From NCBI GenBank assembly GCA_965248355.1, contig OZ252098.1:1344001-1408000 (forward strand): a stretch of 64,000 nucleotides of DNA, read 5' to 3'. Position numbers and translations under genes: made by a program. Each line of letters starts with the position of its first letter. The stretch's first letter is position 1. Shown here piece by piece: positions 53,607 through 55,282 of the stretch. Source of the DNA: Candidatus Latescibacterota bacterium. GTDB lineage: Bacteria > Latescibacterota > UBA2968 > UBA8231. Under the pieces are notes generated by a model. It made no database searches. It saw only the letters and a program-made list of their open reading frames with translations, and was not told the DNA's origin.

Positions 53607-55282
53607 GCGCTCACCAGGATCAGTATCCCATCGCCACCATGTGCCGCGTCCTGGGCGTCTCCCCCAGCGGGTACTATGCGTGGCGCCGCCGGCAGCCGTC
53701 GGCGCGCTCCTTGTCCGATGCGCAGTTGACGCCCTTGATCGACCAGGTCCACACGTGGTCGCGAGGCACCTACGGGGTGCCGCGCATGGTCCGGGAGTTG
53801 AGAGCTCGCGGACAGCCCGTCAACCCCAAGCGCGTGGCTCGCCTGATGCGGGAGGCCGGCTTGCAGGGCGTCAGCCGCCGCAAGTCGACGTGTACCACGC
53901 GGCGCGACGCGGACGCTCCGGCGGCGCCCGACCTGGTCGACCGCGACTTCGCGGCGGCCGGTCCGGACGCGTTGTGGGTGGCGGACATCGAGCGCCACGA
54001 GGCGCTGTGGCACCGTGCGGTGGTGAAAGGCCACCGCCTTCAGTCCGTCGCAGCGGGCTGACGTAGCTGAGGGCAGCCGGATCCCAGGGGACGCGGGAGA
54101 AGGCGACAAGCCGCCCTGACAAAGCCGGGACGGACCAGCACCGTCAGATGGGCCGGGTCCGGCGAGCGAGACAGGAAGGTGTACGCAAGGAACCAGTGTC
54201 AAACGCCCCTCAGGAGACCCACCAGCTCGAACCTGACGGATCCGGGCTGGGTTGCGGTGCGCACTGGCACCGGAGTGGTGCCGGAAACTCCCGCGTCGGT
54301 CGATGTCGCCGGCAGGGAGGCCACGGGGAAGGACTGCGGCGTAACCGTGGCGATACCGCAGGGGCATAGTTGGGCACCTCCCCTGTCGAACGGTGGAACA
54401 GGGAACGTGGGAACCCTCCCAGCGGCCCCACCCCGGTCCGCTTCGGGCGGACCGGCGGGAAGGCTCGTCGCCAGCTGATGCCGAGGGGAGGGGGCGGAGG
54501 GGCCGTAGTAGTCCGAGGCCGGGAAAGCCGGTCACATGGCGAAGGACCCCAGCGTGTTCGCAGCCACGATACATCCCATGGAGGCCGCTGATGAACATCG
54601 GCGCACCGTGGCCCGACCTCGAAGAGGCCGAGCCCCGGGTACGAGGAATGCAATCGAAGCTGCACCAGTGGGCGGTGGCCACTGAGCCGCCACCCATCGG
54701 CATGAACACGGGGAGAGCCGGATGCGGCGAGAGTCGCACGTCCGGTTCGGAGGGCGGACCGCAGAAACCCACTCGTTGCGAAACGAACAGGGCGCTGCGG
54801 TCCGACCCTACACCTACGTGCCGACGTGGTCTGGATTCCTGTATCTGGCCGTGGTCCTGGACGCCTGGAGCCGGCGCGTGGTGGGGTGGGCCATGGCCGG
54901 TCATCTGCGGACGGAGTTGGTCGTGCAGGCCTTGGACATGGCCCTCGGGCAACGACGTCGTCCGGAGGGGGTGATTCATCACTCGGATCAGGGATGCCAG
55001 TATTCGTCGCTGGCCTTCGGGCGCCGTTGCCGGGAGGCCGGGGTGCGGCCGTCGAGGGGCTCGGTGGGCGACTGCTACGACAACGCCCTGTGTGAGAGCT
55101 TCTTCGCCACCCTCGAGTGTGAGCTGCTCGACCGTCGCTGCTTCCCGACGCATGAGGTCGCCCGCCGCGAGATTTTTGACTACATCGAGTCTTGGTACAA
55201 CCGGCATCGCCGTCACTCGGCCCTCAACTACGAATCGCCGATGAACTTCGAACGCGCCCATGTCCAGCCGCAGGTTGCCTGA
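53603..55282 (+). CDS. IS3 OrfB transposase in two exons (53603-53989 and 54812-55282), 285 aa when joined
   Basis: Joining gives [36 protein letters not shown] in one frame without stops. Confidence 0.88.
53990..54811 (+). ncRNA. Group II intron (IIB-like), RT ORF deleted
   Basis: 5' GAGCG; domain V GAGCCGGATGCGGCGAGAGTCGCACGTCCGGTTC (54715-48); domain VI hairpin ending CCGACCCTAC; EBS1 GATGTC (54302-07) complementary to the exon end GACATC; RT N-terminal stub from ATG 54591. Confidence 0.9.

Follow-up and report, generated by a model that had tools for sequence, protein, structure and literature searches.

An ORF-less group II intron of a GAGCG-opening lineage in the catalytic motif of an IS3-family transposase gene

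Bacterial group II introns that lack an open reading frame (ORF) are known, as are introns in the transposase genes of IS3-family insertion sequences (ISs) and splicing that acts as a brake on an IS. For TeI3 of Thermosynechococcus elongatus, Mohr, Ghanem and Lambowitz (2010, PMC2882425) describe a ~1.5 kb deletion in domain IV that removes most of the ORF for its intron-encoded protein (IEP), leaving N- and C-terminal remnants, domain IVa (DIVa) and the ribozyme; the resulting ORF-less introns are mobilised by IEPs of related introns. E.c.I4 is described in PMC3522654 as a group II intron at fixed positions in the IS3-like transposases IS629, IS911, ISEc16 and ISEc31. RmInt1, in ISRm2011-2 of Sinorhizobium meliloti, is a IIB-type intron without an endonuclease, and according to Chillon et al. 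(2014, PMC4238363) its poor splicing efficiency has been put forward as a brake on the transposition of its host IS. Here we describe an 822-nt ORF-less group II intron that interrupts the transposase gene of an IS3-family element from a Candidatus Latescibacterota bacterium. It lies in a window of 64,000 nt (the whole stretch of DNA that was analysed: positions 1,344,001 to 1,408,000 of contig OZ252098.1, assembly GCA_965248355.1), and all coordinates below are those of this window.

The identity of 53990..54811 (+ strand) as a group II intron is essentially certain. The initial annotation of this DNA had placed an 822-nt insert exactly between GACATC and ACCTAC, and the coordinates are exact in the sequence: GACATC runs up to 53989, the insert extends from 53990 (GAGCG...) to 54811 (...CCCUAC), and ACCTAC follows from 54812. 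Exon 1 terminates in ...TGGGTGGCGGACATC (53989), the insert begins with GAGCGCCACG (53990) and finishes with ...GGTCCGACCCTAC (54811), and exon 2 opens with ACCTACGTGCCGACGTGG (54812). The intron is organized as follows.

53990..54811, + strand: ORF-less group II intron, 822 nt, 5' end GAGCG, 3' end CCCUAC (Rfam, profile junction, relatives, uninterrupted homologs)
53990..54409, + strand: predicted domain I, closing helix 53998-54016 / 54390-54409 (RNAalifold consensus of 58 lineage members)
54410..54535, + strand: predicted domains II and III, helices 54414-26/54480-92 and 54515-22/54528-35, with an uncertain mutual boundary (RNAalifold consensus)
54566..54712, + strand: shrunken domain IV, with basal stem CGUGUUC/GAACACG, a DIVa-like 5' subdomain and the deletion junction at ~54675-54700
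54715..54748, + strand: domain V, 34 nt, AGC triad at 54716-18 (Rfam alignment; compensatory changes in the 56-locus alignment)
54752..54808, + strand: domain VI, with the bulged branch-point A at 54805 (Rfam alignment and 56-locus alignment)

The initial annotation proposed Infernal searches with two kinds of Rfam model. Intron_gpII (RF00029, domains V-VI) matches 54713-54811 over its complete model (1-77) at 63.3 bits (gathering score 40, E 4e-10). This is the only Intron_gpII match in the window, and its end coincides with the last intron base, 54811. In the Rfam alignment domain V is a ~34-nt hairpin that contains a 2-nt bulge and the catalytic AGC triad, and the bulged A of domain VI lies 7 nt before an intron 3' end of the AY form (...CCCUAC), a layout shared by 56 aligned relatives; the canonical domain V, the bulged A and the AC end that had been read from the sequence are therefore borne out. 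The group-II-D1D4 class models found nothing in 53700-55100 even at E<=10, which we take as a gap in the coverage of those models and no argument against the intron. The 5' end departs from GUGYG, as the intron opens with GAGCG. The explanation that we favour, with a probability of roughly 0.55 when taken together with the course proposed below, is that of a bacterial group II intron, IIB-like and without a matching Rfam D1D4 class model, which an internal deletion (delta-ORF) has left non-autonomous. The publications and PDB relatives that were compared yielded no intron class for it. That it is a delta-ORF member of the GAGCG lineage described below is nearly certain.

The intron lies in an IS3-family element with the following parts.

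53235..55500, + strand: IS3-family IS, 2266 bp (1444 bp without the intron), inside an IS256-family transposase gene (terminal repeats, target site duplication, NF033516 matches)
53235..53259, + strand: left terminal inverted repeat, TGGAG...GGACA, 21 of 25 positions equal to the reverse complement of 55476-55500
55476..55500, + strand: right terminal inverted repeat (read from the sequence)
53232..53234, no strand: target site duplication GAC, second copy at 55501-55503 (read from the sequence)
53292..53606, + strand: IS3 OrfA, 104 amino acids (aa), HTH_Tnp_1 (NF033516 profile positions 1-86)
53453..53989, + strand: OrfB exon 1, in the -1 frame relative to OrfA, with an HTH_21 domain, ending ...LWVADI (frame open from at least 53453)
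54812..55282, + strand: OrfB exon 2, 156 aa, rve core, second Asp in HHSDQG and Glu in NALCES (NCBIfam, Pfam)

Excision of the intron joins exon 1 (129 aa) and exon 2 (156 aa) into a stop-free OrfB of 285 aa. The NCBIfam profile NF033516 (IS3 transposase) matches exon 1 over profile positions 95-223 and exon 2 over 224-369; because the two matches abut at 223 and 224, nothing has been lost or gained at the join. The uninterrupted database homologs P0011 and P0008 span this join, and one residue differs between them and the end of exon 1 plus the start of exon 2 in the window. These three lines of evidence uphold the annotated 285-aa product and the exact placement of the insertion in the motif of the first catalytic Asp, within an IS3 that is otherwise intact. 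OrfA and OrfB lie in frames 0 and -1, the core is of the DDE (rve) type, and the element has TG...CA inverted repeats beside a target site duplication of the 3-4 bp type. The inverted repeats, also annotated as intact, were read by eye from the sequence, and the automated repeat listing did not include them; their 21/25 match and the GAC duplication agree with that description. When the IS and one GAC copy are taken out, the frame of the IS256-family gene is restored (...LSQGD/FELALRGLLG). A candidate slippery site, A-AAA-G, occurs near 53545-53550, and a search for an apical loop-internal loop (ALIL) pseudoknot gave no match.

Introns with the same 5' end occupy the same position in many IS3-family genes. 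A plasmid blastn search at a distant setting returned 233 records, mostly from Streptomyces and Rhodococcus, and a search of species-representative genomes with the GAGCG 5' motif returned at least 120 loci, corresponding to at least 114 distinct contexts. Among the matches listed, the loci are mostly from Actinomycetota, with a few from Planctomycetota and Gemmatimonadota and one from a gammaproteobacterial metagenome-assembled genome (MAG). The motif W-x-x-D-x, from IS3-family transposases, is encoded directly upstream of the intron in 106/111 assessable contexts (among at least 114 listed). Both intron ends are present in 56 oriented entries that represent 54 distinct sites, including the closest plasmid relative (pNit, below); all of these finish in CCYUAC, and the first base of exon 2 is A in 47 of the 54 that are readable. 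For sampled exon-2 proteins the IS3 profile is best in 8/8, and the four matches that reach residue 1 begin at profile position 224. From the other side, the exon 1 ORF has, among its 120 best homologs, 45 with the same intron read-through tail (W..D.ERHE...) and 64 that are uninterrupted. The lineage is thus at home at a single codon boundary, which lies one codon past the first catalytic Asp (W-x-x-D-I/F, with T next), in divergent IS3-family genes. An intron that simply hitch-hikes on its IS, as first proposed, does not describe a lineage that occupies this boundary in 106/111 contexts.

The A at position 2 is common to all loci found with the motif (at least 114 contexts) and to the pNit copy. 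Because GAGCG is conserved throughout the lineage, it is a trait of the lineage and no lesion. The initial annotation correctly called this start non-canonical.

The best relative is on the Rhodococcus rhodochrous plasmid pNit (NZ_CP032676.1; L001), a full-length intron of 2179 nt with ltrA. It opens with GAGCG and sits in an IS3-family gene at the same insertion point, between ...GCCGACATC (also written ...GTTGCCGACATC) and GAGCGCCACGAGGCGCTG. The window intron shares its lineage, its insertion point and its type of domains V and VI, with 74.8% identity over intron positions 1-685, and differs in that the pNit copy keeps the ltrA ORF. RVT_1 and GIIM domains are present in the pNit IEP, which lacks an endonuclease domain. 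Downstream of the pNit intron, the 3' exon does not continue the IS3 transposase (TSWECRP*). A second related intron, with canonical GTGCG and another exon context, begins at 6010 of L001, ~330 nt past the GAGCG intron.

Among the matches listed, the closest genome locus is 81% identical to the window intron. The closest full-length relative among them, L016, has its IEP ORF (2648-4110) split across several frames, reflecting either real decay or indel errors in a long-read MAG; we used the pNit IEP instead because the L016 IEP is frameshifted in the assembly. Identical domains I-III occur in Microbacterium sp. HA-8 (L025, L053) and Leucobacter sp. H4 (L068, L069), with two copies per genome; in Leucobacter, 5141 nt separate the two copies of the full-length intron, and their IS3 exons are identical. 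This pattern suggests recent horizontal transfer and multiplication, either of the IS-plus-intron unit or of the intron. One member is 3597 nt long (L004, 10001-13597); given a sibling of 2164 nt (L019) in the same MAG, it probably holds a nested insertion of ~1.4 kb.

Introns of the E.c.I4 type resemble this lineage, as far as they are described, in being reverse transcriptase (RT)/maturase introns at a fixed position in IS3-family transposase genes, at the same W-V-A-D-F-T-Y motif. In E. coli AR_0014 we identified an IS629 copy with a full-length group II intron (L123, 1250-3660) that follows ...ACTTACG and opens with GUGUG. We infer from the description in PMC3522654 that this is E.c.I4 itself. 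It differs from the GAGCG lineage in lying 7 nt further downstream, in its canonical GUGUG and in an IEP that is 36% identical to the pNit IEP. Of 5426 E. coli genomes, 1946 contain a match to the query's domain V-like 40-mer. As with RmInt1 in its published description, the lineage lacks an endonuclease and resides in an IS transposase gene; unlike the window intron, RmInt1 opens canonically at its 5' end and codes for an IEP of its own. The host IS of RmInt1 belongs to the IS630 family and RmInt1 itself to class D, and both differ from the present case. We did not find the GAGCG lineage or its exact IS3 site described in the literature searched, which did not include subscription journals or the Zimmerly intron database.

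The window intron retains little of its ORF. Where an RT/maturase ORF would lie in domain IV there is a stub of ~28-34 codons from the ATG at 54591, in which Pfam and NCBIfam searches found no domain; tblastn likewise detects only this stub, in keeping with the ~30 codons that had been annotated. Aligned to the pNit intron, the window intron forms two blocks, 1-685 and 704-819, between which 1352 nt of ORF are absent. The deletion is thus internal to domain IV and spares the ORF termini and the ribozyme, as initially claimed and as seen in the Rfam domain V-VI match, the two-block alignment and 167 of 179 consensus pairs (below). In these respects (internal domain IV deletion, ORF remnants, a DIVa-like region and a retained ribozyme) the intron is like TeI3 as described. 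The two cases differ in history and setting: the 17 TeI3 copies are described as sharing one breakpoint and one origin and as having proliferated, whereas here there were at least three losses and each mini-intron was seen once; moreover, the IEP of the GAGCG lineage has no endonuclease domain and its target is an IS gene.

Across the 54 distinct sites, 51 introns are 2125-2199 nt long, one is 3597 nt, and two are ORF-less (L040, 821 nt; L064, 817 nt). These two and the window intron occupy separate positions in the ribozyme tree and form a single clade in 0/200 bootstrap trees. A common origin of the three was rejected, as the constraint costs 149 log-likelihood units (p = 7.5e-6 in the approximately unbiased (AU) test). 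The ORF was therefore lost at least three times independently in the lineage, with breakpoints that are different and convergent. The left breakpoints lie ~0, 17 and 21 nt past the codons for ...KLHxWA, and the right ones ~6-12 nt ahead of GGCAUGA. All three mini-introns retain both strands of the domain IV basal stem and a ~140-nt 5' segment of domain IV with a Shine-Dalgarno sequence and start codon. The predicted structure of this segment is conserved, with compensatory changes at 13/39 pairs, and its final hairpin lies just 5' of the breakpoints. By analogy with the DIVa of PMC2882425, as described there, the segment may be the maturase-binding site, kept by selection.

If this segment serves a protein, one alternative loses ground, namely that protein-independent self-splicing suffices in vivo and no helper is necessary. 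That explanation draws on the intact ribozyme core and on small IIE/IIF ribozymes of similar size, which self-splice well in vitro according to PMC3753933. The DIVa-like segment kept in all three mini-introns suggests protein dependence, and we consider splicing without a helper very unlikely. Taking the lineage as a whole, we tentatively describe it as large, endonuclease-less and mainly from Actinomycetota, with a fixed GAGCG, specialised on one codon boundary in the first catalytic-Asp motif across divergent IS3 subgroups, and repeatedly shedding its ORF at convergent breakpoints that keep the maturase-binding segment; this composite picture is somewhat more apt to be revised than to stand in full.

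The sites through which the intron would recognize its exon are as follows (EBS, exon-binding site; IBS, intron-binding site).

53974..53979, + strand: IBS2 GUGGGU, exon positions -16 to -11 (lineage register test)
53984..53989, + strand: IBS1 GACAUC
54217..54222, + strand: EBS2 ACCCAC, internal loop directly preceding helix 54222-33 / 54238-50, ahead of the C[AG]GCU helix (lineage register test)
54302..54307, + strand: EBS1 GAUGUC, in a hairpin loop of domain I (lineage alignment)

All six positions of EBS1 pair with IBS1 in the window intron. Over 99 unique intron/exon pairs the mean is 5.28/6, compared to 4.96 +/- 0.043 when pairs are shuffled, a value reached in none of 5000 shuffles; the perfect pairing of GATGTC with the exon end, noted from the outset, is thus backed by covariation. 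Compensatory cases include L064 (UAGGUC:GACCUG), L098, L032 and L010. For EBS2, a single register rises above shuffling (mean 4.60/6 versus 4.43 +/- 0.06, reached by 6/2000 shuffles), and in this register the window intron pairs at 6/6. The signal is modest and the EBS2-IBS2 assignment remains a prediction from sequence. A 4-nt gap between IBS2 and IBS1, as here, is unusual for IIB introns. A different EBS2 had been annotated, CCACC pairing with GGTGG. The letters are present at 54219-23, and their pairing with GGUGG (exon -13 to -9) was rejected, at 2.35/6 across the lineage versus 2.38 shuffled; the supported register lies 3-4 nt further upstream in the exon.

The perfect match of both EBS1 and EBS2 to the intron's own site is also what would be seen in an actively proliferating non-autonomous retroelement, mobilised in trans and spread to several host IS3 copies in the manner of TeI3. 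The retained DIVa-like segment, the precedent of trans-mobilised ORF-less introns (PMC2882425) and the private EBS1 of L064, where UAGGUC fits its own exon GACCUG at 6/6, fit such a course. Against these stand the lack of a second copy in the 64 kb, of any genome locus above 81% identity among the matches listed, and of a family, as the three mini-introns are independent singletons. We judge proliferation of this kind unlikely.

The initial annotation had named disrupted pairing in domains I-III as a sign of a dead relic. An RNAalifold consensus of domains I-III from 58 unique lineage members contains 179 pairs, 110 of which show compensatory change in the lineage. The window intron forms 167 of the 179 (93.3%; other members, 88-99%). 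At columns that are >=95% conserved it deviates at 4 of 228, where full-length members have a median of 2 and a maximum of 13. Domains V and VI conform to the lineage type, and the whole-intron fold has a z score of -3.04, better than all 20 shuffles. Judged from its sequence, the ribozyme looks usable but slightly worn. RNAalifold also pairs intron bases 4-8, CGCCA (53993-53997), with UGGCG (54537-54541) at the start of domain IV. Because both sides are invariant across the lineage, this pairing is neither backed nor contradicted by covariation.

The IS3 element is itself nested in another transposase gene.

52907..53231, + strand: 5' part of an IS256-family (Transposase_mut) gene, split by the IS3 (Pfam)
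55504..56204, + strand: 3' part of the same IS256-family gene, frameshifted and internally deleted (Pfam Transposase_mut)

The recipient IS256-family gene is a pseudogene, with a frame shift at a G run at ~55531-36 and the profile stretch before ~214 missing around 55740. An ISL3-family transposase ORF at 51763-52773 (- strand) is truncated, matching only positions 1-111 of the 240-position DDE_Tnp_ISL3 profile. This ORF and the nested elements form an IS cluster at 51.7-56.3 kb, and elsewhere the window contains ordinary metabolic genes. The best relatives of the IS3 element in the plasmid collection are ~68% identical.

Several observations weigh against a working non-autonomous intron. The IS3 sits in a cluster of broken IS elements, blastn self-comparison detected neither the intron nor the IS a second time in the 64-kb window, and tblastn with the IEPs of two relatives detected no RT/maturase there beyond the stub. 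Most of the 12 consensus pairs that are broken are paired in >=90% of relatives, which places the window intron in the lower third of the lineage, and its terminal branch is 0.19, compared to a median of 0.056. No domain I column qualified as EBS3 by complementing the base that opens exon 2, in a comparison with just 4 usable non-A cases. The exons of the other mini-introns carry stops (6 and 4 in L040, 1 and 2 in L064), some of which may be assembly errors, and the group used in the AU test was chosen after the first tree had been inspected. As L040 and L064 lie in damaged exons and each mini-intron was seen once, ORF loss may usually be a dead end.

These points raise the question of a dead relic: deletion of the ORF would have stranded the intron with no compatible maturase, its RNA would stay unexcised, the IS3 copy would be permanently inactive, and the open exons would reflect only recency. 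The single copy and the lack of an RT in the 64-kb window, a number of broken pairs above the lineage median together with the long terminal branch, the occurrence of the other two independent mini-introns singly and in damaged exons, and the IS graveyard in the neighbourhood are all consistent with this, and inactivated copies and fragments are common in enterobacterial surveys, as PMC3522654 describes. The condition of the locus argues the other way. Exons, inverted repeats and target site duplication are intact, domains V and VI look as they do elsewhere in the lineage, the intron retains 93% of consensus pairs, and the 4 altered positions of 228 are inside the full-length range. Each of the three independent deletions left both stem strands of domain IV in place, together with the structured 5' segment, and on this ground we argue for selection after loss of the ORF. 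We regard the dead relic as a real possibility that we lean against.

Returning to the reading of an internally deleted, non-autonomous intron, we propose the following course. The intron would have entered its site through reverse splicing, with EBS1 (and EBS2) guiding it by pairing to the exon. In this copy ~1350 nt of the domain IV ORF are gone and the six ribozyme domains are kept, along with the structured 5' part of domain IV (ribosome-binding site, start codon and ~30 codons), which may act as the maturase-binding site. Excision could then occur if another locus in the cell supplied the maturase of a full-length relative, and the transposase of this IS3 copy would be made only after splicing; unspliced mRNA would yield an OrfB stub ending 23 codons into the intron. 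Because the intron separates the exons within the catalytic motif, OrfB can come only from spliced RNA, so that the annotated dependence of transposase production on splicing follows from the anatomy. Maturase-dependent splicing that gates the transposase is plausible from the sequence, and we place splicing in the host today at slightly under even odds.

The locus is a clean natural example that combines all three known ingredients: an ORF-less bacterial group II intron, an intron in an IS3 transposase gene, and splicing as a potential IS brake. It belongs to a large lineage in which the GUGYG 5' rule is stably broken and which follows a site coding for a protein motif through divergent IS3 elements. 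Recurrent ORF loss with convergent breakpoints points to the RNA segment that the maturase needs and provides a testable map of a minimal domain IV, which could guide the design of compact delta-ORF ribozymes. If the composite picture of the lineage drawn above holds, ORF loss would be a natural and recurrent way of generating non-autonomous 'mini' introns by which transposase expression is gated.

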